DNA from: an uncultured Spirochaetota bacterium
GTDB taxonomy: Bacteria > Spirochaetota > UBA4802 > UBA5550
DNA: 64,000 nt
Reading direction: 5' to 3'
NCBI GenBank assembly: GCA_963827275.1
Contig: CAWHAA010000001.1
Span: 32,001 to 96,000, forward strand
A model generated the notes under the pieces. The model searched no databases and was not told the DNA's origin. It was given only the letters and a program-made list of their open reading frames with translations. The first letter of the stretch is position 1. Each line of letters starts with the position of its first letter. Shown piece after piece: positions 11,447-64,000 of this stretch. The position numbers and the translations under genes are program-made.

Positions 11447-11588
11447 TACTCTGACCCCGCATTGCACCGATAGTTATCGGTAGCCCGGTTACTCTGACCC
11501 CGTATTGCACCGATAGTTATCGGTAGCTCGGTTACTCTGACCCCATATTGCACCGATAGTTATCGGTAGCCCGGTTTACTCTGACCCC
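11447..11588 (+). repeat. 43-bp tandem repeat array A (3 units plus a terminal motif), REP-like
   Basis: TACTCTGACCCC starts at 11447, 11490, 11533 and 11577; unit TTACTCTGACCC-CGCATTGCA-CCGATAGTTATCGGTA-GCCCGG with an internal palindrome. Confidence 0.95.
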
Positions 11589-11599
11589 GGGTTGACCTC

Positions 11600-30874: not shown

Positions 30875-33800
30875 GAGACCTCATCCGATCAACGATAATC
30901 TTCAACGTATCCGCTTCAGGCAGGATAAGGAGGTTCCCGATTATCCTGTCATTCTCAAAGAAAAAGGAGGTGTCCATCACTATCGCGTAGTCGTTTATCA
31001 GCGAATGAAGTACCAGTATTGAATCGATGACCGACTGGAGATAATCGTGCACGATCGTCGGGATCCCCGCCCGTATGACCAGCCCGGTCTTTTCGGCGAT
31101 GATATTGATGACCGACGAACCGACGATGTTCGTCAGCTCCTGGAGCGCCGATTCCCCGTCCTCGTTGAGTTCTTTTGTCCTGCTTGTTCCCTTCCCGTAA
31201 AGCAGGTCGATCACCTCGAAGCCCGTTTTCTCCTGGAAGATGAAGAGAACGGTCCCCCGCGCGTCGCCGAGGACCGGCATCATGATGCCCATGTATATGC
31301 TGTCGATATTGCCGATATGCCGCGGGATCTGCTCGAGCGGCATCAGGGTGACTTCGGGAATTGACAGATCGATCCGCTTCTTCAGTATCTTGGAGATTGA
31401 TTCCGCCGCATTCGTGGCGCCGACGTTCGCGATAAGCTGGAATTCCGTCAGGTCGCGCGGCGTGAGGTCAAGGGCCCCGATCATATGCGAAGACGGGTCG
31501 CCGGTCGAGGCGGTCGTCTTGATGCTTTCCCGGAGCTCGTTTCTGAACTCGTCAAGGGTGTCGTGCACCCGCTGTTCTATCTGTTCGTCCGATACCGCTC
31601 CGGGCGCGGGGCCGGCGCCGGCGCCGGCCGGTTGCGGTCCCTTCAGTGACGACGCCGCACGGTCCTTCCTGTCGGCCTGCACCGGCCGCTGCGGAGCGGC
31701 TTCCTTTTGAGGGGTCGTCCCGCGAAGCGCCGGCCCGTTGCCGGCCGAGAAACCCGCGGACGACTTCCGCGTGGCGATCTCCGGCTGCTCGAGCTCTTCA
31801 TACGAGGCCTCGCCCGAATCCACGACCCGGTTCCGTTCATATTTTGATATCTTGTCCTGCTCGGCGATCACCTTGTTTATCATCGAGGCGATGTCGAGGA
31901 TGAGGCAGATGCTGCCGTCGCCCAGGATGGACGCGCCCGCGAGCCCCTCGACGGTCATATAGTTCTGCTCCAGGGACTTGATGACGATCTCCTGCTTGCC
32001 TTCAAGGTAATCGACGATCAGGCCGATCTTCCTGTTGCCGAAGCCGACGACCACGACCGGCATCTTGTCATCCGGCCCCAGGACGCTGTCGAGCTGGATG
32101 AAGCGGGACAGGCGCAGGAGCGAAAGTATCTCGCCCCTGAGGTTTATCACCTCGTGGCCCTCGATGGTCGTTATATCGGAACTGGAAATCTTTATGGTCT
32201 CAATGACGTCTGTCAGGGGTATCGCGTACATCTCGTGGCGGACCTTGACCATGATGGCGGGGATGATAGCGAGCGTTATCGGGAACGCGAGCACAAAGCG
32301 CGTGCCCATCCCCGATTCGGTTTCGATCGCCACGTTGCCATTCAGCTCGTTGACGATCTCCTTCACCACGTTCATGCCGACGCCGCGTCCCGATATGTCG
32401 GTCACGCGTTCCGCCGTGGAAAAGCCCGGGATGAAGATAAAATTATATATGTCCTGGTCGTCCATCGCCGCGATCATCTCGGGCGTGGCAAGACCCATGG
32501 CGACCGCTTTCCTCTTGATCTGGTCGAGGTTCAGTCCGCGTCCGTCATCGCTCACCTCGACGAAAATCTGGTTCCCGCCCTGGTAGGCGTTCATCGTGAT
32601 GTGCGCAACTTCCGATTTCCCCAGCCGCTTGCGCTCGGCCGCGGACTCAATCCCGTGGTCGACGGCGTTGCGCAGGAGATGCAGCAGCGGTTCGCCGATA
32701 GAATCGATAACTTTTTTATCAAGCTCGGTGTCTTCACCCTTGATGGTAAGCTCCATCTCCTTGCTGTATTCCTTGGCAAGGTCGCGCACCAGCCTCCTGA
32801 ACCGGGTGAACACCTGCCCGATAGGGACCATCCGGGTCTTCATGATGCCGCTCTGCAGGTCCTTCGCGATCCTGGACATCTGCTCCATCCGGCTCTTGAA
32901 TTCATTGACCAGCGACTTCTCTTCGTATATCTTGCGCATCTCCTCGTAGAGCTTGAAGAACCCGGAGTTCGCGATGACCAGCTCGCCGACGTTGTTCAGG
33001 AGCAGGTCCAGCTTGTCGATGGACACCTTCACGGTCTTGAGCGCGGTTATCTTCTTGCGTTCCTCGGGCTTCTCGCCGGCCCGGACGGCAATTTTTTCCT
33101 CTTCCTGCAGCTCGGTCTCTTCATCCTCGTCTGCGCCGTCATCGACGGCATCCTCATCATCAGCGGGCCCCATCGCGGCAACCGACACCGCCTGCTCATC
33201 CGCACGGTACGAGGGAGTCTCTTCCTGGTCCGTGCTGAAGGTCTCGAGATCGCCGAATTGAAGCGCCTGCTTGCCGTCCCTGACGCCGAGGCCGATCGAA
33301 CGCACATCGACCCGGTATATCAGGTCGATATTCGCGGCCCGCTTGATATCGTCGATGCCCGCATCCGAAAGCATGATGATCTTTATAATGCTGTTCTTCT
33401 CGTCATCGCTGAAATCCTCGATCGGCGGCGAGGTGAGGAGTATCTCGCCGATCCGCTCCATGTTGCTGACGACCAGCTGCGCCTTCACCCACTTCATCTG
33501 CGCCTTGTCGTCGATGAACACGGTGATCTCCGAGCAGGTGTTCCCCCGCTCGATACCGTCCTTTATCGTTTTACGCATGTCCGCGTCGATGACCGCCTTG
33601 GGGATGTCCGCCGGGGTCCTGGCCGCCGCGGCGGGGCCGGGGGAACGTTTTTTCTCTTCGGCCGGACCGGTTGAAATTTCGGAAATCTTCCTGATGTCAT
33701 TTATAAGCCACTGCAGGTCCTGCTCCGGCTTCTCGCCGGACGCGATGGTGTCTATTATGTTGTGGATTTCATCGAAGCACTTGAAAATTATATCGATGAT

Positions 33801-47627: not shown

Positions 47628-48875
47628 ATGAAAAAATTCACCTACCCGCTTCTCGCGCTGGCCATCGCGGGCGCAATCATTTCAGGGATGCTGCTCCTGC
47701 AGCATTATTATCCCGATGCGAAAATCGGACTGATTACCTGCGGCGACGGGATATTCAACCCCTGCCTCTCGCTCGCCCAATCAGGCTATGCAACGCTCTT
47801 CAACATGCCGATTGCCGCCTACGGCCTCCTCTGGTACCTGCTCGCACTGTTCATCCTGCTGATCGCCGATTACGCCGGCGGACGGTACCATGCCTATTCA
47901 CTCGCGCTGATCCTTCCCCTGTCGGCCGCGGGCGTCGCCGCCGACATCGCCCTTGGAATAATCCTGATCAAGCTGAAGATACTGTGTACTTTCTGCGTGG
48001 CCACCTACGTGATAAACCTTGCTATCCTGGCCCTGTCGTTACTATGGTTTCGATCGGCAAAACAAAGCGACGGCTTTTCACTCCCGGGGGCTCTGCGCGA
48101 GCTGACGGCGGCTGATTCAACCCCCGACCGCAAGGCATTCCATTCCGCTTTCATCCTGTTCTTTTTTCTCCTCGTATTTTCGGTATTTGCGACATCACTC
48201 ATATTGAAGGTCAAGACCGCGACAGCGAAAATCCCCGAAAACAAGGCGACCGCGTTTCTCCAGAATTTTTATCGCGCTCCCGCGCAAAATATCACGTTCC
48301 CCGACAGCGGCATCACCCTGGGAAATCCGAGGGCAGAGGTGACCATTGTCGCCTTTACCGATTTCCTTTGCAGCGCCTGCTACCAGCTGTACCGGCAGGA
48401 ATCAATGATCTTTTCGAAATACAGGGACCGGGTAAAAATAGTCTATTATAACTATCCTCTTGACAGGAGCTGCAACCAGGAGCTGAAGAGGACCGTGTAT
48501 AATAATTCCTGCATCGCCTCGCGCGCATTCCTGGCGGCGTCAGACCGCGGCATGGTAGAGGAATATATACTCAAGCATTTCGCAGACTATGAGAACACAC
48601 ATTCCCGCTATTCCATGGAGCTGGCGCTCCGGGCATTCACCCATATTGATGAGGGAAAACGCGGGGGAATGACCGCCGGGCAATTCCAGAGCCTCATGAC
48701 ATCTCCCGCGATAGCTGCGAGGCTCGACGAGCATGTACGGCTTGCCAAACAGCTCAAGGTTGACGCCACGCCGACGCTCTACATCGGCGGCAGGAGGCTG
48801 GTCGGCGTACCGCCAATGGAAATACTTGACCAGATACTGCAAAACGAGCTGGCCGGCAGGAAGTCGTCACATTAA
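47628..48875 (+). CDS. VKOR-family membrane domain fused to a DsbA/thioredoxin domain
   Basis: C...C loop and CTFC in the TM domain; FTDFLCSAC and DATPTLYI in the C-terminal domain. Confidence 0.88.
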   Translation: MKKFTYPLLALAIAGAIISGMLLLQHYYPDAKIGLITCGDGIFNPCLSLAQSGYATLFNMPIAAYGLLWYLLALFILLIADYAGGRYHAYSLALILPLSAAGVAADIALGIILIKLKILCTFCVATYVINLAILALSLLWFRSAKQSDGFSLPGALRELTAADSTPDRKAFHSAFILFFFLLVFSVFATSLILKVKTATAKIPENKATAFLQNFYRAPAQNITFPDSGITLGNPRAEVTIVAFTDFLCSACYQLYRQESMIFSKYRDRVKIVYYNYPLDRSCNQELKRTVYNNSCIASRAFLAASDRGMVEEYILKHFADYENTHSRYSMELALRAFTHIDEGKRGGMTAGQFQSLMTSPAIAARLDEHVRLAKQLKVDATPTLYIGGRRLVGVPPMEILDQILQNELAGRKSSH

Positions 48876-50906
48876 TTCGTACGGGTCGATATCGATTTCA
48901 AGATATACGTCACGTCCGGTAACGGCGTTCCTTGAAGCGGTGATTGCGTCACGAAGGGCTTGTATGTTGCCTGATTTCAGGATTATATGGTGACGCCAGT
49001 TGCCCCCGATCTTGCTGAAGGGGGCGGCTGACGGGCCGAGTATTATGATATCCTTGCTCTGACCCCTGATATCCTTACTCTGACCCCTGATATCCTTACT
49101 CTGACCCCTGATGTTGCTCTTACCACTGGTATCCTTGCTCTGACCCCGCATATTCTCCTCAAGGGCCAGTTTCAGGTCATTTATACAAGCAATCACCCGT
49201 TCTTCATTCTCTCCCCTGACCAAAAGACGCGCGATCCGGGTAAAGGGGGGATATTGGAGCATCCTCCTCGCTTCCAGTTCAGACCGGTAAAAACCATAGT
49301 AATCCTGATTCCTTATAAAACGAAACAGGGGATTTTCATTATCAAGGGTTTGTATAACCACTTTCCCAGGTGAATCCCCACGGCCAGAGCGACCCGCCAC
49401 CTGAACGAGTAATGCAAATATTCTCTCTGTGGAGCGAAAATCCGGCATATTCATGCCTATATCAGCCAGGAGGACCCCAACAAGGGTGATATTTTTGAAG
49501 TCAAATCCCTTGGCAACAAGCTGGGTGCCTACCAGTATATCGACCTCTCCCCTGTTCATCTTCCCGATCAACTCCGGCACCGTATCCTTATGCCTGGAAC
49601 TATCCTGGTCGAGGCGGAAAATCCTGAAATCGGGAAATTCCTCCACTACGATATCCTCGATCCGTTGCGTCCCCGAACCGACTTTATCTATTTGCTCTGA
49701 CCCGCATCGAGCACATGAGGTCGGAACCGCATCCTGATGCCCGCAATAGTGACAGAGCATATTGCGGTCCCGGTGATAATTCATGCCGATATTACAGTGG
49801 GGGCACTCAACAGTCCATCCACACTGACTGCAAATGACGATAGGCGCAAATCCACGCCGGTTAAGAAGGAATACAACCTGTTTTCCCTGGTCAACAGCCC
49901 TCTTTGTGTAAAGCTTCAAAATTGGAGAGATGAGTTTACTCGGTTTCGTGGAATTGATCTTAACGATTTCAACATCCGGAAGTGACGCGTTCCCATAGCG
50001 TGTTTTCAGAGCATGAAGTTTCATGACACCGCGCTCACATGCATAGAGCGTCTCCACCGCTGGTGTTGCTGATCCCATCACGACCAGAGCCCCTTCCGTC
50101 TTGCTACGGTATAATGCAAGACGCCGTGCATTATACCGGGGGGTGCTGTGCTCCTTGTATGATCCGTCATGCTCCTCATCAATAATGATCATTCCCAGCC
50201 TGGGGCATTGAAGAAATACCGCTGAGCGCGTACCGATTGCTATATGTGCATCCCCCTTAAAGAACCTGATCCAGTTATGAAGACGCTGGTTAGAGGTTAG
50301 ATGGCTGTGATAAATGATAAGATCGTCACCGAAAACACCATACAGCCGTTCGAAAATCATTGAAGAGAGTGATATTTCAGGGACCAGATATATCACCGAA
50401 TACCCCCTGGCAATCAGCGACTTCGCAATCTCAATATATATCTCCGTCTTTCCGCTGCCAGTTATTCCGAAAATACAATGACTTAGCTCACCTTTATGGT
50501 ATGATTCCATGATATTGAAATACACATTCCGTTGTTCATCATTTAGTTGAACGTCCCCTGTTACAGTTTTTTCAAATGGAATTTTATACCGGGCCGATGG
50601 TCTAATTCCTGATGGAAGCGCCATTGCAAGCGCTTCACCAATGGAGGAAAGATAATTATCCGCGGTGTATCGAGCAAGCGACATTAACCGATTGTCATAA
50701 ATCAGATCTGTGTCAATAACATCAAGTATCTCTTTAACTTTATAATCACCAGGCTCGTCTTCATGGGTTCTGTCAACGAAGGCAATAGTATTTCTTCCTG
50801 AAAAATTTACCTTTACTCGCATGAAAGGCGTAACATGCATTCCCGAAGGCACACGATAAGTAAAAGTTGTCGAGAGGGGATAACCGATATATACATCTGC
50901 GAACAT
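48867..50906 (-). CDS. priA: Primosomal protein N' (PriA) with an in-frame repeat insertion
   Basis: GITGSGKTE, DEEHD, GSATP, LNRRG, four CxxC pairs, QVAGRSGR, YPPF, IDIDP. Confidence 0.96.
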   Translation of the reverse strand: MFADVYIGYPLSTTFTYRVPSGMHVTPFMRVKVNFSGRNTIAFVDRTHEDEPGDYKVKEILDVIDTDLIYDNRLMSLARYTADNYLSSIGEALAMALPSGIRPSARYKIPFEKTVTGDVQLNDEQRNVYFNIMESYHKGELSHCIFGITGSGKTEIYIEIAKSLIARGYSVIYLVPEISLSSMIFERLYGVFGDDLIIYHSHLTSNQRLHNWIRFFKGDAHIAIGTRSAVFLQCPRLGMIIIDEEHDGSYKEHSTPRYNARRLALYRSKTEGALVVMGSATPAVETLYACERGVMKLHALKTRYGNASLPDVEIVKINSTKPSKLISPILKLYTKRAVDQGKQVVFLLNRRGFAPIVICSQCGWTVECPHCNIGMNYHRDRNMLCHYCGHQDAVPTSCARCGSEQIDKVGSGTQRIEDIVVEEFPDFRIFRLDQDSSRHKDTVPELIGKMNRGEVDILVGTQLVAKGFDFKNITLVGVLLADIGMNMPDFRSTERIFALLVQVAGRSGRGDSPGKVVIQTLDNENPLFRFIRNQDYYGFYRSELEARRMLQYPPFTRIARLLVRGENEERVIACINDLKLALEENMRGQSKDTSGKSNIRGQSKDIRGQSKDIRGQSKDIIILGPSAAPFSKIGGNWRHHIILKSGNIQALRDAITASRNAVTGRDVYLEIDIDPYELM
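49047..49148 (+). repeat. 21-bp tandem repeat containing TTRCTCTGACCCC, inside priA
   Basis: GATATCCTTRCTCTGACCCCT at 49047, 49068 and 49089, a degenerate 18-mer at 49110, a variant at 49128; encodes RGQSKD(I/T) on the minus strand. Confidence 0.95.
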
Positions 50907-51047: not shown

Positions 51048-51061
51048 GGTGTCAGAGTAAC
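51048..51061 (+). repeat. REP-like motif variant GGTGTCAGAGTAAC downstream of the RAYT-like gene
   Basis: One mismatch to GGGGTCAGAGTAAC. Confidence 0.7.
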
Positions 51062-51223
51062 ATTATTTTAGTACTGGAATAGCATAGTAGCAAAAATATC
51101 TAGTAATCTGGGATCTATGGACTCTAAAGATAATCAGAACTGATTTGAATTTTAAGGAGAGAAGGCTTAATATAATAAGCTAAATATTTGTACTTCTGGA
51201 ATTCCAACTGTTGCGATAACCAA

Positions 51224-51823
51224 TTACCCAAACAGGCTTTCCGGGAAGATTCGCTTTCTATACCTTTCTTCGTATTCAAGAAATTTTCCGACCCGTTCCT
51301 CGAAGGTAGCCCCCAGCTTTACAAAATATTCATGCAGGGTGATGGTTACCGGCGGAATGAATTCCTTGCTCAAATAGCAGCGGATAGACCCATACTTGTA
51401 ATCTCGGGGATCTGCGACAGTTTTGCTTTTTACCGGATTATAGGCCATATAAAGCAATATTACGAAAAACGTCGAAACCGGGTCGTCAGTAAGTTCAATA
51501 ATGGTATCGCTGAAGCGCTCATTCCAGAAGGGGCCAATCCTGCCCATGATCCGGTTATATCGCCGTGCAAATTGTGACTTGATGAACTGCATGATACGAG
51601 AAATGGACTCGCCGCCATCAAGCGTACGGATAAGAAAATGGAAATGATTGGCCATGAGGGTATAGTTGATCAGCTCAAAATGGTATTTTTCAAGCGCCAG
51701 GTCTAAGACAAAAAGCATCAAGTCTTTCATCTCATCAGAATGCATGAGGTGTTTTTTCTCGATGCAGCGTGACATGGTGTGATAGGTATGTTCCGGCAGG
51801 CAGTTCCGTTGTTTTCGCGGCAT
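51224..51823 (-). CDS. REP-associated tyrosine transposase-like HUH endonuclease (Y1_Tnp, IS200/IS605 TnpA superfamily)
   Basis: MPRK.R, YHTMSR, HUH motif MANHFH, GPFWNERF, catalytic Tyr region LYMAYNPVKS, DYKYGS; no tnpB next to it. Confidence 0.9.
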   Translation of the reverse strand: MPRKQRNCLPEHTYHTMSRCIEKKHLMHSDEMKDLMLFVLDLALEKYHFELINYTLMANHFHFLIRTLDGGESISRIMQFIKSQFARRYNRIMGRIGPFWNERFSDTIIELTDDPVSTFFVILLYMAYNPVKSKTVADPRDYKYGSIRCYLSKEFIPPVTITLHEYFVKLGATFEERVGKFLEYEERYRKRIFPESLFG

Positions 51824-51902
51824 GGCGTCCTCCTTTGCTTGTGGGATGTCTTGCTTGCGTTTGCTGTATATACGAATGGGAGGCCGCCTTCTGGTAATAA
51901 TT

Positions 51903-51964
51903 TTATGGGGTCAGAGTAAAAAATTTAAAATAAAACTATATCATCAAAAAAAGGGTCAGAGCAA
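51903..51964 (+). repeat. Two REP-like motifs upstream of the RAYT-like gene
   Basis: TTATGGGGTCAGAGTAA at 51903-51919 (identical to 62893-62909) and GGGTCAGAGCAA at 51953-51964. Confidence 0.85.
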
Positions 51965-52048: not shown

Positions 52049-52495
52049 ATGAACCTATTAGAAAAAATTGAATCTGACCTGAAAAAGGCCATGAAAGCCA
52101 GTGACACCATCAGGGCAGAAACACTAAAAATGCTCAAATCAGATCTGGCGTATGAGAAGGCCAAGACAGGAAAAGAACTGACTGACGAGCAAATGCTTGA
52201 AGTAGTGAACAGGTCGGCCAAACGCCGTCGTGACTCCATAAAGGAATTCCAGAAGGGTAATCGCCAGGACCTTGTTGATAATGAGACAAAAGAATTGTCC
52301 ATTGTCGAGGAATATTTGCCCAAACAAATGAGTGAAGCTGAAATCGATAAACATATAACTGACAAGATCGCCGCCCTTGGATCAGTCTCGCCGAAAGATA
52401 TCGGCCGGATAATGGGAGAAATAATGAAAGAACTCAAGGGAAAGGCGGATGGTAGTGTTGTTAAATCAATTTTATCGAAAAAAATCGAAAAATAA
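52049..52495 (+). CDS. GatB/YqeY domain protein
   Basis: DLKKAMKA, KRRRDSI.EF.KGNRQDL, YLPKQMSE, DIGRIMG, GKADG. Confidence 0.92.
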   Translation: MNLLEKIESDLKKAMKASDTIRAETLKMLKSDLAYEKAKTGKELTDEQMLEVVNRSAKRRRDSIKEFQKGNRQDLVDNETKELSIVEEYLPKQMSEAEIDKHITDKIAALGSVSPKDIGRIMGEIMKELKGKADGSVVKSILSKKIEK

Positions 52496-53507
52496 TAATA
52501 TACTGTTTTGTTTTCTTATTTTTTTCATGCCTGTGGTATCAGCTTATGGGCAAGAAGAAGATATCAAACTCGAAAATCCGCCTCTCGAAAAAAAAATCGG
52601 GGTCTTTAATCTTGAAAATGGCTTCGAACGATATTTTTTCTATACTAGATACCAGATTGGTGGTAAAACATTGTCACGGCAGGGAGCCGGAATCACTTAT
52701 TTTCCCTTCAGCGAGCTAAAGTTTCCTCTCGATGTTTTCATGATTTACGCAAATCTTACTCTGACCCTGCTCGATAGAATTTCATTCCACTATGGAGTAA
52801 AGAAAAACATCCACAACCGGGTTGGCAAGATGAAAGATACCGACTGGATACCCCTCCCCGGATTTAAAACAATCTATTCTGAAAGCGACGCCAGGCTTAA
52901 CGCCATTATCACCGAGGCTGATTTAGTCGTTAATCTTTACACGATATCATTTTTTTCTATAAAAGTTGGGGCAGGATTCATGCACCAGTACCTCTACTAC
53001 TGGTGCAGCAACGTGGTTCAAGAAGACATCATTGACGCAAATATGAATCTTGAAATGCCGTCAATAACGGTTATCCAGGGAAAGATAATCACTTACGAAG
53101 TACAGTATTACATTTTCACGATGCAGATTACGCCTGTTTTCACCATTCCTTTAGGGAAGGGATATCTGGAGATAATCCCTGCAATTCGGTTTTCCCCTTA
53201 TCTCAGGGCAAAAGATATTGACGACCATCTCCTGAGAGGAAAAGTTGCAAAAGGCGACAGCAAAGGAACCGCCTTCATGCCTTTCCTGAGCATCAGGTAT
53301 TTATTTGCCAGCAGGGTCTTTATATCGGCAAAGCTCGAATACATGTACCTGGTAACGAAGGGAAAACAGACGCAATCATATTACAACCCATTTATTGAAC
53401 CAGACGTCACCAACAATATTCCGGGATGGTCGGCACGCATTGAAAATAAACTTAAAAGCGAACAGCTATCGGTCAGTCTTGGGGCAGGCTATTCATTCGA
53501 ATTTTGA
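52449..53507 (+). CDS. Omptin-like outer-membrane protease
   Basis: SELKFP, GKMKDTDW and DIDDHLLR resemble omptin catalytic motifs; C-terminal GAGYSFEF; start uncertain. Confidence 0.65.
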   Translation: MVVLLNQFYRKKSKNNNILFCFLIFFMPVVSAYGQEEDIKLENPPLEKKIGVFNLENGFERYFFYTRYQIGGKTLSRQGAGITYFPFSELKFPLDVFMIYANLTLTLLDRISFHYGVKKNIHNRVGKMKDTDWIPLPGFKTIYSESDARLNAIITEADLVVNLYTISFFSIKVGAGFMHQYLYYWCSNVVQEDIIDANMNLEMPSITVIQGKIITYEVQYYIFTMQITPVFTIPLGKGYLEIIPAIRFSPYLRAKDIDDHLLRGKVAKGDSKGTAFMPFLSIRYLFASRVFISAKLEYMYLVTKGKQTQSYYNPFIEPDVTNNIPGWSARIENKLKSEQLSVSLGAGYSFEF

Positions 53508-61050: not shown

Positions 61051-61482
61051 CTATTTCACCACGCATACGCTGCAGTGCGCATGGTGGACCACCCTGTCGG
61101 ATATCGACCCCATGAGAAACCTTCCTATGGCAGAGCGCCCCTTGCCGCCCAGGACGATGATATCGTAATTCTCTTTTTCGGCAATTTCGCATATCTTATC
61201 AGCGGGATATCCCTCCACCACCTTCCTGTCCCAATCCACATTTTCTTCATCAAGCATCGGGTGCACTTCCTCGAACCTCTGCTCCGAGAGCCATTTCACG
61301 CGGTCCACTCCCTCCGGCGCCGCTCCGTAAAAGCCGGGGAGAGGGCCGAACTCCTCAACCACCTCCAGGACGGTGAGCTTCGCATGGGCTTCCTTGGCGA
61401 TGACAATCGCCATATGCAGCGCTTTCTTTGATAATTCCGAACCGTCAACTGGTGCGAGAACTTTTTTGATATAACGTCGCAT
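61051..61482 (-). CDS. Universal stress protein
   Basis: [34 protein letters not shown]; start placed at ATG 61482. Confidence 0.92.
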
Positions 61483-61668
61483 ATGCTTTCTCCATAGTTG
61501 GTATCGGCAGGGCCGCAGCATCACCCATAAAGTATCGAGACAGGAATGAACGGTCAAGGATTATTTTCAAATTTGCATGTCCGCCATCCCTGTGCCACGC
61601 GGCGGATGACTTTTTTTAAAGATTATACGATTAAAAAAGCATTTTGTCAAATGAATTCCGGAAGCGGA

Positions 61669-62715
61669 TCAAGTGCCGTCATCGTCCCTGAAGACATCAT
61701 CGAGAAAATCAATCAGGTCGCCGATTTCCTTATACGTCTTGAAGATTGACATTTTTTCTGAATGGCTGAAGATCCTTGTCCCCACAAACCGGCTCTTCGC
61801 ACCGTATCCGACAAGGAACTTATGGAGGCTCAACCCAAACGAATATGGAATTATATTATCCGAGGTTGAATGGATAATAAAGAACTCAGTATCCGGGACT
61901 TTTTTCCCTTTCGTAAAAATGCTGCCCTCATTAATTGAGATGAATTCCTTATTGTCAACCGTTGATGCGTCGATCCGCCGGAACAAGGCGTCGCCCAGAA
62001 CGGCCCGCATTGCTTCGCGGTCGGTGGTTCCCGGCTTTGATGCGGTGATGGCCCTGGCGACAAGCTCCCGTTCCCTGTGGTTATAATCGCTGCTGTTAAG
62101 CGCGTTGGCCATCTTGACAATATAATCGATCTCAACGCCCGCCTTATTATAATAATCGACGAGAAGTTTCCCCGTGAAAAAAGGGCCGTATAAAAACAGC
62201 TTGTCCGGATAGTATGCCAGCGGGATGGTATTGAACGCCACCAGGAGTCCGGTGCCGGCCACACATGCGCCGAAGGCATTATACTGTCCGGGATATTGTC
62301 TTCTCAATTCCATGTATATAGCCCCGGCGTCATCAGCGACCTCGACCAGCTTCCATCCTTTCTTGGTAATAGCGGGGATGAAGGGCACAAAGACCGTCCG
62401 CCCCGTTGATCTGCCGATGGCGATGGCCATTTTTTTCAACGTGGGATGCCGGTATGCCTCGGGCGAAAACCCATGCAGGAAAAAGTAATACTTACCCGGG
62501 ACCCTGTTGGCCGGGGTAAAAATCATCATGGGGGTGTTCCCGTTCTTCATCGCAAGGGTGATCTCTTTTGTTTCACAACCGGCAGGCGGTATGACATCTG
62601 ACATGGTCAATAAAAATCTCACGCTCGGTTTTTGACAGAGTGCATAGCCCACGACCCCAAGTGCGGCGCTGATGGTCCCGATACAGATCAGGGCAATAAT
62701 GATTATTTTCTTCAT
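61669..62715 (-). CDS. Hypothetical protein, alpha/beta-hydrolase-like, N-terminal membrane anchor
   Basis: MKKIIIIAL signal/TM, FLHG, GACVAG at the nucleophile elbow position, IIHSTSDNIIP; start placed at 62715. Confidence 0.55.
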   Translation of the reverse strand: MKKIIIIALICIGTISAALGVVGYALCQKPSVRFLLTMSDVIPPAGCETKEITLAMKNGNTPMMIFTPANRVPGKYYFFLHGFSPEAYRHPTLKKMAIAIGRSTGRTVFVPFIPAITKKGWKLVEVADDAGAIYMELRRQYPGQYNAFGACVAGTGLLVAFNTIPLAYYPDKLFLYGPFFTGKLLVDYYNKAGVEIDYIVKMANALNSSDYNHRERELVARAITASKPGTTDREAMRAVLGDALFRRIDASTVDNKEFISINEGSIFTKGKKVPDTEFFIIHSTSDNIIPYSFGLSLHKFLVGYGAKSRFVGTRIFSHSEKMSIFKTYKEIGDLIDFLDDVFRDDDGT

Positions 62716-62896
62716 GGCATTGTTCAATCTCGTGTTACAGGCAAAAATTTTTTTCCATGGAGTGAAACCCACAACATGAAAAATATCGTCCCGAGGGTGA
62801 AAGGTCAAGGATAATTTTCGATTATCACTCCATATGAGGGTATACGAACAGACAGGTAGAATCATGAAATTATTTCAGGACACATGGCATTATTAT

Positions 62897-63084
62897 GGGG
62901 TCAGAGTAACCCACTTACCGATAACTATCGGCCCCACAGTGGGTCAGAGTAACCCGCTTACCGATAACTATCGGCCCCACAGTGGGTCAGAGCAACCCGC
63001 TTACCGATAACTATCGGCCCCACAGGGGGTCAGAGCAACCCGCTTACCGATAACTATCGGCCCTCACAGGGGGGTCAGAGCAAC
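62897..63084 (-). repeat. 43-bp tandem repeat array B (4 units plus a terminal motif), same family as array A, opposite orientation
   Basis: GGGTCAGAG at 62898, 62941, 62984, 63027 and 63072; unit GGGTCAGAGYAA-CCCGCT-TACCGATAACTATCGG-CCCCACAGT. Confidence 0.95.
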
Positions 63085-63091
63085 TACAATA

Positions 63092-63124
63092 TAAAACAAT
63101 GGCGGCACCGGAGTGCCGCCATTG
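63092..63124 (-). terminator. Intrinsic terminator of the last gene
   Basis: CAATGGCGGCAC-CGGA-GTGCCGCCATTG followed by a T-tract on the minus strand. Confidence 0.8.
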
Positions 63125-63157
63125 CATATTCATCAACCAATTAATCCGAACTATCCG

Positions 63158-64000
63158 TTACAGATAATCCTCAATCTCAAGCGACAGTTCCGAGCAGATA
63201 TCAACCAGCTCTTTCAGCGTCGCCTTGTTGGGATACGTAGCATTGTAATACGCCGAATCCCACATGGAGCCGCTGTTGAGAAGATCGTACATCTCGGGTA
63301 TGACCTCCCCGGCCGTATCGCCATGGATGAGCAGGTCAACCAGGTAATCATTGATCTCGTAATCAGCCGGATTGTCCCAGATGCCGTCGCCATTAGTGTC
63401 TATTCCGTCATTATCGACGTCCATGAGCGACTTGAGGGCAATGAGCAGATTTTCATAGTGGCCGGTGGCCGACGTCATGACCTCGGGCAGGTATGTGCGG
63501 AGAATGTCCCGCAGTTCCGTATTGGTCACCCAGCCGCCATCATACCGCGCCATCAGCACCCCCAGGGTGTGCCGCAGCGCCTGCCGGTCCGCAGTGGTCA
63601 TCGTGGTGGCGGTGAGCATGTTATTTATGACATGCACCAGGTTCCCGTGCGTCGACTCGCTGCCCATTATATAGTACGGGCCCGCGCTGTTGCCCATCAT
63701 CTCGCCTGCCGCATTCAGGAGCCGGTCATAGTTGTTCCACGCGGCCCCGATCGGGTGGTCGTCTATGAATTCCGATATCCCCGTGGTGTCGGTGTGGCCG
63801 ATCAGCTGATCGAGCGCCACTTCCAGGTCTGCGCTGATCGGCGCCGGCGTTCCGGTGACACGGCTCGCCACATCAGTGTACATCCACCCGTAGCGGTTGC
63901 TGTTGAGCTTCCGGTCATACCTGCCGGAGTCGATCCAGGAATAGCCGTTCACGTAGTTATTGCCCCTGTCTATCTGCAGCGAGGTCACGACCTGCTCAAG
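63158..64000 (-). CDS. Hypothetical protein, C-terminal part (frame open to window end)
   Basis: No stop up to base 64000; contains DVDNDG and DTNGDG motifs. Confidence 0.7.
   Translation of the reverse strand, partial: LEQVVTSLQIDRGNNYVNGYSWIDSGRYDRKLNSNRYGWMYTDVASRVTGTPAPISADLEVALDQLIGHTDTTGISEFIDDHPIGAAWNNYDRLLNAAGEMMGNSAGPYYIMGSESTHGNLVHVINNMLTATTMTTADRQALRHTLGVLMARYDGGWVTNTELRDILRTYLPEVMTSATGHYENLLIALKSLMDVDNDGIDTNGDGIWDNPADYEINDYLVDLLIHGDTAGEVIPEMYDLLNSGSMWDSAYYNATYPNKATLKELVDICSELSLEIEDYL

Follow-up and report, generated by a model that had tools for sequence, protein, structure and literature searches.

A probably mobile, class-2 TnpA-Y1 element of an uncultured Spirochaetota bacterium with direct copies of a dispersed 13-nt word at its ends

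Among the described relatives of repetitive extragenic palindrome (REP)-associated tyrosine transposases (RAYTs), those closest to the locus reported here are RAYT-like genes whose flanking inverted repeats have no relation to GTAG REPs, named TIRtrons/TIRYTs by Di Nocera et al. 2013 (PMC3733652); many of their flanks share GGGGWSAS, some of the dispersed families are moderately abundant and lie in dimers or clusters, and intragenic REPs are often found in replication/repair genes. Quentin et al. 2018 (PMC6006769), who quote the shared word as GGGG[AT][CG]A[CG], place most TIRYTs in subclass 2.1 (group 1 of Bertels), a low-copy subclass described as lacking REP-like sequences, with a C-terminal helix-turn-helix (HTH)-like domain and a median length of 238 aa. 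Bertels et al. 2017 report low flanking 16-mer frequencies in group 1, and Corneloup et al. 2021 (PMC8266576) report that characterized TnpA-REPs require a folded REP. Here we describe a gene for a 199-aa class-2 TnpA-Y1 (RAYT-like) HUH single-stranded DNA (ssDNA) transposase (51224..51823, − strand), together with the 13-nt word at its flanks, in a 64,000-nt stretch (the window) comprising positions 32,001 to 96,000 of contig CAWHAA010000001.1 of assembly GCA_963827275.1, from an uncultured Spirochaetota bacterium. The assembly (G000) has 4.13 Mb in 11 contigs, and the window lies on contig C1. We read the locus, with a probability of about 0.68, as an active, insertion sequence (IS)-like element of the class-2 TnpA-Y1 type that uses a linear 13-mer both for its ends and as its preferred target; it would be a variant of the GGGGWSAS-flanked elements with direct ends, high copy number, and array formation.

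The features shared with TIRYTs/TIRtrons, as far as their published descriptions go, are a RAYT-like Y1 protein without GTAG REP flanks, flank repeats from dispersed families of moderate abundance that are organized as dimers or clusters, a number of distinct genes of this type in one genome, and a flanking word, GGGGTCAG at 51907-51914, that fits GGGGWSAS (chance for one 13-mer on both strands, ~1.5e-3). Flanks in terminal inverted repeat (TIR) arrangement are also found, in one paralogue of the same genome (on contig C10) and at 13 of 34 distantly related homologue loci. The difference is that the gene itself and 13/14 loci of at least 59% identity have direct rather than terminal inverted flanks, and that, compared by published description, the repeat here is a 13-nt non-self-complementary word of ~190 copies that forms head-to-tail arrays and invades coding sequence. 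GGGGTCAG fits GGGGWSAS, so the kind is already known and its direct-end form is new; on the best reading, the direct-end, high-copy, array-forming form is a new variant of the elements noted in 2013. A preliminary description of the window had called the system undescribed, a claim to which the GGGGWSAS-flanked RAYT-like genes of Di Nocera 2013 (PMC3733652) stand opposed, and its statement that characterized RAYTs act on CGTC-tagged REPs is not supported.

The open reading frame (ORF) contains NHFH and YMAYNP, and the latter has the Y-x3-NP pattern by which class 2 is recognized (PMC6006769). The match to Pfam Y1_Tnp (PF01797) gave E=3.2e-10 and 40.6 bits against a gathering threshold of 23, and the same family is matched by 31/31 homologues of our alignment/profile set. 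REP_Tyr_transpos (NF047646) is the top NCBIfam model for all 31; the protein itself scores 73.2 bits, under the curated cut-off of 80, and reaches 23 bits with the IS200 model, well below the cut-off of 55, its motif being Y-x3-NP instead of Y-x3-Q. H60, H62, W100, R103, and Y125 are invariant across the 31 homologues, and N129 is nearly so. The AlphaFold2 (AF2) model is confident (predicted local distance difference test, pLDDT, 94), and its top Foldseek match is 4ER8, the E. coli TnpA-REP (E=6e-8, TMt 0.76), with IS200/IS605 TnpAs next and matches to the ISDra2, IS608, and IS200 enzymes. A profile of the 31 homologues also places 4ER8 first (E=1.1e-4), ahead of ISDra2 and IS200 transposases; single-protein phmmer against the PDB returned just ISDra2, at E=0.38, and 4ER8 emerged by the profile search. 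Judged by its Pfam and NCBIfam matches, invariant residues, and profile and fold matches, the 199-aa protein is an intact class-2 (Y-x3-NP) TnpA-Y1 enzyme of the RAYT type.

No second Pfam domain was found in any of the 31 homologues, and Bac_DnaA_C, HTH_23, and HTH_28 were matched by 0/31 at E≤1. The protein resembles subclass 2.1 in its Y-x3-NP motif, in an HuH of the NH[YF]H type, and in having no canonical REP hairpin nearby. It differs, by the published account of that subclass, in length and domain content (199 aa and no HTH-like Pfam match in the 31 homologues, versus ~238 aa with an HTH-like domain), in its motifs (WN and Y[LIM][AG][YF]NP, versus W[EQ] and YIELNP or Y[IV]HLNP), and in its high-copy motif, where the subclass is low-copy and without associated repeats. 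Given the length, the missing HTH-like domain, and the differing W and Y motifs, assignment to subclass 2.1 does not follow. The ESM Atlas returned generic Y1_Tnp clusters only (Spirochaetota, Cyanobacteriota, Myxococcota), of no help for the subclass. A pattern scan of 185,579 species genomes yielded 295 relatives, using two narrow peptide patterns that do not capture the family's full range; the best 80 of the 295 matches are all labeled uncultured Spirochaetota/Leptospirales bins, bar one 1-kb contig labeled Caldithrix.

The preliminary description had regarded the gene as stand-alone, with no obvious IS ends. We find instead a 0.89-kb duplicated (mobile) unit (51049..51941; 893 bp) made up of motif, 175-nt AT-rich segment, transposase gene, promoter region, and motif, of which a second copy lies on contig C4 (514674-515567) and is 99.3% identical over 894 aligned bases; over the 850 nt that separate the motif cores, the identity of C1 to C4 is 99.77%. 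Identity begins exactly at GTGTCAGAG and ends on the other side ~10 nt past GGGGTCAGAGTAA, with no target-site duplication at the C1/C4 unit. The end motif 3' of the gene, at the outer edge of the unit, is GGTGTCAGAGTAA (51048..51060, +), which has one mismatch to GGGGTCAGAGTAA (51907..51919, +), the end motif that lies on the antisense strand of the gene, 84 nt ahead of its start codon, and is shared by paralogues and homologue loci. A distal second motif, GGGTCAGAGCAA (51953..51964, +), lies just beyond the unit shared with C4. These are the motifs noted earlier at 51048 (with one mismatch), 51908, and 51953 in a single orientation, and all three are indeed on the + strand.

Searching G000 with tblastn, we found five paralogues, namely the gene itself, the C4 copy (100% protein identity), and copies at 73%, 67%, and 44%, plus one truncated fragment. 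All five have TTACTCTGACCC (in gene orientation) 67-96 nt upstream of the start codon, and in 4/5 a second motif in the same orientation follows 170-220 nt past the stop; the 44% paralogue, on C10, has an inverted motif copy 73 nt past its stop. The 170-330-nt segment 3' of the gene is AT-rich and unconserved among the paralogues. In the relative G016, three near-identical copies have in common a unit that extends exactly from TTACTCTGACCC to TTTTACTCTGACAC and starts at the distal-type motif, and in a fourth the shared sequence is limited to the part between the proximal motif and the stop codon; identical or near-identical RAYT pairs are present in G016, G011, and G023. The unit edges in C1/C4 and in G016, together with the paralogue flanks, put the 13-mer at the outer boundaries of a recently moved unit. 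A systematic GGGG versus GGTG difference between the two end motifs was considered and fails across loci.

Between the upstream motif and the start codon is a conserved TTCGTATATAC box (51866..51876, −), probably the promoter −10 region, and a TCGTATAYA-like box is similarly placed in most homologue upstream regions. The upstream layout is conserved in the window (51824-51906) and homologues alike: motif, T-run, ~20 nt, TCGTATAYA box, ~35 nt, GGAGG, ATG. Lying directly upstream of this probable promoter, the motif could double as an operator.

The end word belongs to a large dispersed family. The window has 17 copies of its 9-mer core, GGGTCAGAG, where 100 shuffles gave 0.37 on average and never more than 2, and the genome has 179, where Markov orders 1-5 predict 17-27. 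Longer forms likewise exceed expectation: the 12-mer GGGTCAGAGYAA has 139 genome copies versus <1 expected, GGGTCAGAGTAA has 84 versus 0.1-0.2, and GGGTCAGAGCAA has 55 versus 0.2-0.4. With its main one-mismatch variants, which include GTGTCAGAGYAA (32 copies) and GGGCCAGAGYAA (9), the 12-mer comes to 139 + 32 + 9 + 4 + 4, about 190 in total. A position count over 136 loci reveals a sharply bounded 13-nt word, GG-GGTCAGAG-YAA, which has unconserved flanks and is not self-complementary; the end word of the unit is GG(G/T)GTCAGAGYAA. The 179 copies make up 107 loci, in which the arrays of at least three copies are head-to-tail without exception (16/16) and motif pairs are mostly direct (21/24, with 3 inverted).

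By a crude gene call that covers ~86% of the genome, 123/151 12-mers (81%) are intergenic, in every spacer type, and the copies show no orientation link to neighboring genes (27 same versus 29 opposite). Relative to GC skew, 56 loci have the motif on the C-rich strand and 29 have it on the G-rich strand (a single test, p=0.0045); the complement of the motif, which is the gene's sense strand, therefore tends to lie on the strand commonly taken to be the lagging-strand template. The spread over contigs, assessed by reading, is uneven: C1, C4, and C5 hold most copies, and there are three 9-mers in C2 (340 kb), one in C6 (313 kb), and five in C8 (550 kb), which could be a regional or a binning effect. 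Among the literature matches listed for the motif and palindrome strings (the best 20 of 954; the palindrome is described below), none had a bacterial-repeat context; the matches concerned eukaryotes or other organisms, and the palindrome was absent from them.

To relate the motif to the gene, we compared 41 genomes of the same order, G000 included, which leaves 40 relatives. A homologue is present in 37/41 (own genome included), with up to 24 matches per genome, and GGGTCAGAGYAA in 33/41, the reversed control word occurring almost never. With a strong homologue defined as E≤1e-40, at least five motif copies are found in 21/30 relatives with a strong homologue versus 0/10 with a weak one or none (maximum 2; Fisher p=1e-4, a value overstated by the kinship of the genomes). 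Homologue loci numbered 50 (own included), 48 of them with enough upstream sequence for a flank count, and among these the motif lies within 150 nt upstream and in the same orientation at 37/48, versus 1/48 for the reversed control. The sequence-based checks proposed in the preliminary description, namely motif counts against a Markov background (179 versus 17-27), co-occurrence of the motif with homologues and its scarcity in relatives without a strong one, and the presence of the motif at homologue flanks, came out in its favor, and its central idea of a RAYT-like enzyme with its own dispersed repeat family is supported by the protein, the motif counts, and the co-occurrence.

The orientation of the flanks differs between the two parts of the family. 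Loci of at least 59% identity (n=14, own included) include 13 with direct flanks and none with inverted flanks, while the more distant loci (n=34) include 13 in which an inverted copy lies no more than 40 nt from the stop, 4 with direct flanks, and 17 arranged otherwise; the maximum-likelihood (ML) tree splits the loci of at least 59% identity from the distant ones with 100/99 support. The best homologue locus of the relative G013 (L011, G013:C1:1281814-1283592) has NHFN in place of the HUH motif and Cys in place of the catalytic Tyr, and that genome holds three 12-mers; this copy, a single case, may be naturally inactive.

Comparison of orthologous sites shows that occupancy is polymorphic. 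The gene is flanked by priA (48867-50906, −; six PriA/helicase Pfam families) and yqeY (52049-52495, +; PF09424, E=1.7e-45), with no tnpB-like ORF between them; the preliminary description had placed a 199-aa Y1 HUH protein with NHFH and YMAYNP, and without tnpB, between these genes, and the ORF and Pfam checks agree. The priA-yqeY spacer contains a RAYT in three same-genus genomes (G000, G001, and G011) and is empty, at 170-460 nt, in 10; the G007 locus ends short of priA. In the ML tree, the G000 spacer copy groups with G009_C41 and G000_C5 (97/94) and the G001/G011 spacer copies fall in another clade (100/99), and this spacer was therefore invaded independently. Where the unit edge would fall, the empty G010 spacer carries a solo GGTGTCAGAGTAA, and G004 a degenerate copy. 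At the C4 site, no RAYT is present in 13 same-genus relatives with a readable upstream region; the G009 contig ends 70 nt past a motif.

The window interval with array B, one of the tandem arrays described below, is taken up by a RAYT in G012, G014, and G015. At these loci (L007, L010, and L048, compared with window 61500-63180), the RAYT homologue adjoins the orthologue of a universal-stress-protein-like gene (window 61051-61557); in G015 its other side matches the gene at window 63158-63988, and the window interval holds a 398-aa gene and array B. Public data, consisting of contigs from four runs of four studies, contain the gene in every case, and one contig spans the priA-side junction.

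Motif copies also build tandem arrays. Array B (62897..63084, +; period 43, 4.3 copies) is built from four units of 43-45 bp, each with motif, spacer, CCGATAACTATCGG, and spacer in that order, and ends in a fifth motif, while array A (11447..11589, −; period 43, 3.3 copies) has three units of 43-44 bp with the same architecture and ends in a fourth motif; the unit in both reads GGGGTCAGAGYAA, ~9 nt, (A)CCGATAACTATCGG, ~8 nt, and the short spacers alone differ. A third array, of the motif alone, lies in frame in priA (49046..49147, −; period 21, 5 copies) and encodes (I)RGQSKD repeats at codons about 586-615, the start of the PriA C-terminal domain, with the motif encoding RGQSK. The two arrays and the intragenic priA repeat of the preliminary description are thus real (periods 43, 43, and 21), and the 17-mer TTATGGGGTCAGAGTAA that it had pointed out at 51903 recurs at 62893, the start of array B. 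Single 12-mers lie elsewhere in the priA coding sequence (49692..49703, −) and in an omptin-like ORF (52449-53507) at 52756..52767 (−).

Every motif array of at least three copies opens and closes with the motif (16 arrays), and in public run X14 a contig has 62981 directly followed by 63070, so that 88 nt, or two array B units, are missing. The suggestion of an asymmetric tag in direct tandem copies is borne out by the uniformly direct arrays and by the predominance of direct pairs. Units are identical within a locus only, with 0/55 exact unit types at more than one locus. The earlier claim that unit content depends on the locus therefore stands as regards the spacers, which differ between loci, and the unit types, none of which is shared, but does not extend to arrays A and B, which share one architecture. 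Dispersal of whole 43-bp units was rejected on the same count of shared types; one inter-locus pair differs by at most 2 in the ~20-nt variable part. The priA repeat of G000 comprises four exact motif copies plus a degenerate fifth; the version in G009 is shorter, with two. The PriA alignment is broken over the repeat in 15/16 same-genus relatives and only G009 aligns through; in G010 and G001, two of the 15, an unrelated short segment replaces the repeat.

A census of tandem arrays in G000 (period 15-100, at least 2.5 copies; n=58) found the motif and/or the palindrome in 20/58 and neither in 38/58. Arrays of like period exist without motif or palindrome, and array formation is therefore not attributable to the enzyme. 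Further high-identity arrays share the 22- and 43-44-bp periods and are built of different words (C4 639567-639669 and 640293-640425; C10 471188-471345 and 471451-471609). Two such words, GGGGTCACGTGCACATGT and GGGGGACAGGGGGG, fit GGGGWSAS, and arrays of this kind may represent the repeat families of other Y1 paralogues. Contig C6 has a 78-bp tandem array (307319-307899; 7.4 copies, 97% identity) whose unit is tRNA-gene-like and contains GTAGCTCAGTCGGTAGAG. An Rfam scan of the window returned one tRNA only, and the arrays match no known RNA family.

Compared with the better characterized enzymes, the locus combines features of two kinds. It shares with E. coli TnpA-REP the top profile and fold match (4ER8), an alignable HUH, W-x-R, and Y-x3-NP, and a high-copy intergenic flanking repeat; the E. 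coli REPs, by their published description, are imperfect or perfect palindromes after GTAG whose hairpin is needed, whereas the repeat here is a linear word. REPtrons have GT[AG]G-tagged inverted REP hairpin flanks and single-copy vertical inheritance; here the flanks are a linear 13-mer in direct orientation, and the gene has five paralogues, up to 24 matches per relative, and polymorphic sites. With IS200/IS605 elements (IS608 and ISDra2 TnpA), the unit shares two ends in the same orientation, the lack of TIRs and of a target duplication, and near-identical copies, and the moderate GC-skew orientation bias recalls ssDNA targeting at the replication fork. It differs from them in Y-x3-NP, in the absence of tnpB, and in having the same word at both ends where IS200/IS605 has distinct left-end and right-end hairpins; 37 upstream minimum free energy (MFE) folds and inspection of the downstream ends by eye gave no subterminal hairpin at a conserved position.

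On the reading that we favor, the element would travel as a ~0.9-kb unit bounded on both outer sides by direct copies of a single 13-base word, and the ~190 further copies would be its cognate end/target sequence in the form of solo ends, insertion targets, and small derivatives. New insertions would go to places that already hold the word. Segments between two direct copies would be duplicated head-to-tail, giving rise to 20-21-bp units (motif alone), 42-46-bp units (motif and palindrome), and the in-frame priA peptide repeat. We infer that the protein binds and cuts at the 13-mer, likewise the strand and position at which it does so, and that the enzyme rather than slippage makes the arrays.

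Several observations weigh against this reading. Characterized TnpA-Y1 enzymes, as represented in PMC8266576 and in PDB titles, need a folded hairpin; the 13-mer forms none, and MFE folds of 37 upstream regions, with inspection of the downstream ends by eye, revealed no conserved hairpin at a fixed position beside the end motifs. Among motif-to-motif segments >100 nt, none besides the RAYT unit has a high-identity second copy, and generic cargo mobilization was rejected on that ground. Nine of the 30 strong-homologue genomes hold fewer than five 12-mers (some low-12-mer genomes keep the 9-mer core at the gene flanks with a different 3' extension), and the kinship that inflates the Fisher test has already been mentioned. 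Motif-free arrays with periods of 20-22 and 43-44 bp exist in G000, itself a bin with 92% completeness and 3.9% contamination. The contigs of the four public runs showed neither an empty-site nor an excised allele; contigs cannot reveal rare variants and so are silent on excision. Cleavage and binding of the 13-mer and transposition of the unit by the protein are, finally, predicted activities. A bolder version, which we consider rather unlikely, would make the protein a hairpin-independent class-2 Y1 HUH transposase for which the linear 13-nt word serves as left end, right end, and target, any DNA between direct copies, from 7 nt to a whole gene, being mobile or amplifiable. If true, one hairpin-free mechanism would cover the 0.9-kb unit, the 20-46-bp arrays, the PriA RGQSKD repeat, and the repeated hits on the same spacers, and a single protein family would switch naturally between inverted and direct ends.

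The hairpin might instead be supplied by the palindrome. CCGATA(AC/GT)TATCGG (CCGATAACTATCGG) has 145 perfect copies in G000 versus ~0.1 expected, and under a classical domesticated REP/RAYT system (REPtron/REPIN) it would be the REP hairpin, the 13-mer its tag, and the RAYT a single-copy, vertically inherited gene. At 82/179 motifs a palindrome does lie 2-39 nt downstream (mostly 9-12 nt), motif and palindrome abundance correlate within the genus (Spearman 0.72), and the top structural match is a TnpA-REP bound to its REP hairpin. Against this, 45/145 perfect palindromes lie more than 55 nt from any motif, the orientation of the loop does not follow that of the motif (50 GT versus 32 AC), and the correlation drops to 0.18 outside the genus, where G021 has 88 palindromes, no motif, and a weak homologue only, and G022 and G023 have 21 and 32 motifs with one palindrome each. 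No palindrome lies within 350 nt of the RAYT-flanking motifs, no GT[AG]G tag stands at the hairpin foot, motif pairs are direct (21) rather than inverted (3), and the gene is multicopy with recent duplicates. The palindrome also builds 20-22-bp arrays on its own, of up to 10.8 copies, and is plentiful in relatives without the 13-mer (88 sites in G021, 47 in G017). It is thus a separate element from the 13-mer, an independent dispersed family; as the enzyme's REP hairpin it was rejected, being uncoupled outside the genus and absent at RAYT flanks, and the classical reading, largely refuted by this decoupling, now seems very improbable. Palindrome arrays were seen at C7 112677-112852, C9 26039-26274, C4 712947-713132, and C5 19225-19322. 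A distant Y1 fragment (C4, ~391.3 kb) was considered as the palindrome's partner and discarded, as its frame stops after the W motif, without the Tyr motif, and no palindrome or motif is nearby.

The arrays and the word itself each invite a simpler account. Arrays A and B and the 21-bp priA array could have arisen by replication slippage or unequal recombination between direct motifs, the transposase having only seeded single copies. This explains the arrays as well as nicking by the enzyme does, because arrays of similar period without the motif exist in G000, and we give it an even chance: 38 of the 58 arrays lack both motif and palindrome (among them arrays of 22- and 43-44-bp period, 93-97% identical), the palindrome amplifies alone, none of the 55 unit types recurs between loci, and the priA array is in frame, as selection on slippage products would ensure. 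The enzyme's side can point to 20/58 arrays carrying motif or palindrome despite their tiny share of the genome; that motif arrays start and end with the motif is what motif-to-motif duplication by either mechanism predicts. The 13-mer could also be a host sequence with its own function (protein-binding, promoter-associated, or structural), which the transposase merely prefers as a target, the flank motifs being captured targets. The motif already present in the empty G010 priA-yqeY site, the two RAYT sub-lineages in one spacer, the motif immediately upstream of a promoter-like region in every paralogue, the 81% of copies in intergenic DNA, and the sharp 13-nt boundary with unconserved flanks would all suit such a sequence. 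Yet a host function would have to vanish with the gene, since the 10 relatives without a strong homologue have 0-2 copies; the lack of orientation bias to genes argues against a promoter or terminator role; both motifs travel with the unit in G000 and G016; and the motif invades the priA coding sequence. We therefore regard a host sequence as improbable and retain the reading of the 13-mer as end and preferred target of an active element.

To our knowledge, no part of the family is larger or less understood than the class-2 TnpA-Y1 proteins that fall outside the GTAG-REP groups, and we know of no subclass 2.1 member that has been assayed. The spirochaete lineage is a compact natural system in this respect, with direct and inverted ends in one genome and one protein family, recent mobility, and a short, bounded word. 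For the host, the consequences include arrays that vary between samples and a peptide repeat in PriA. The 13-mer bears on whether a Y1 enzyme works without a hairpin and on the purpose of the GGGGWSAS sequences, and short, programmable ssDNA recognition by an HUH enzyme would be of interest to users of HUH-tags.

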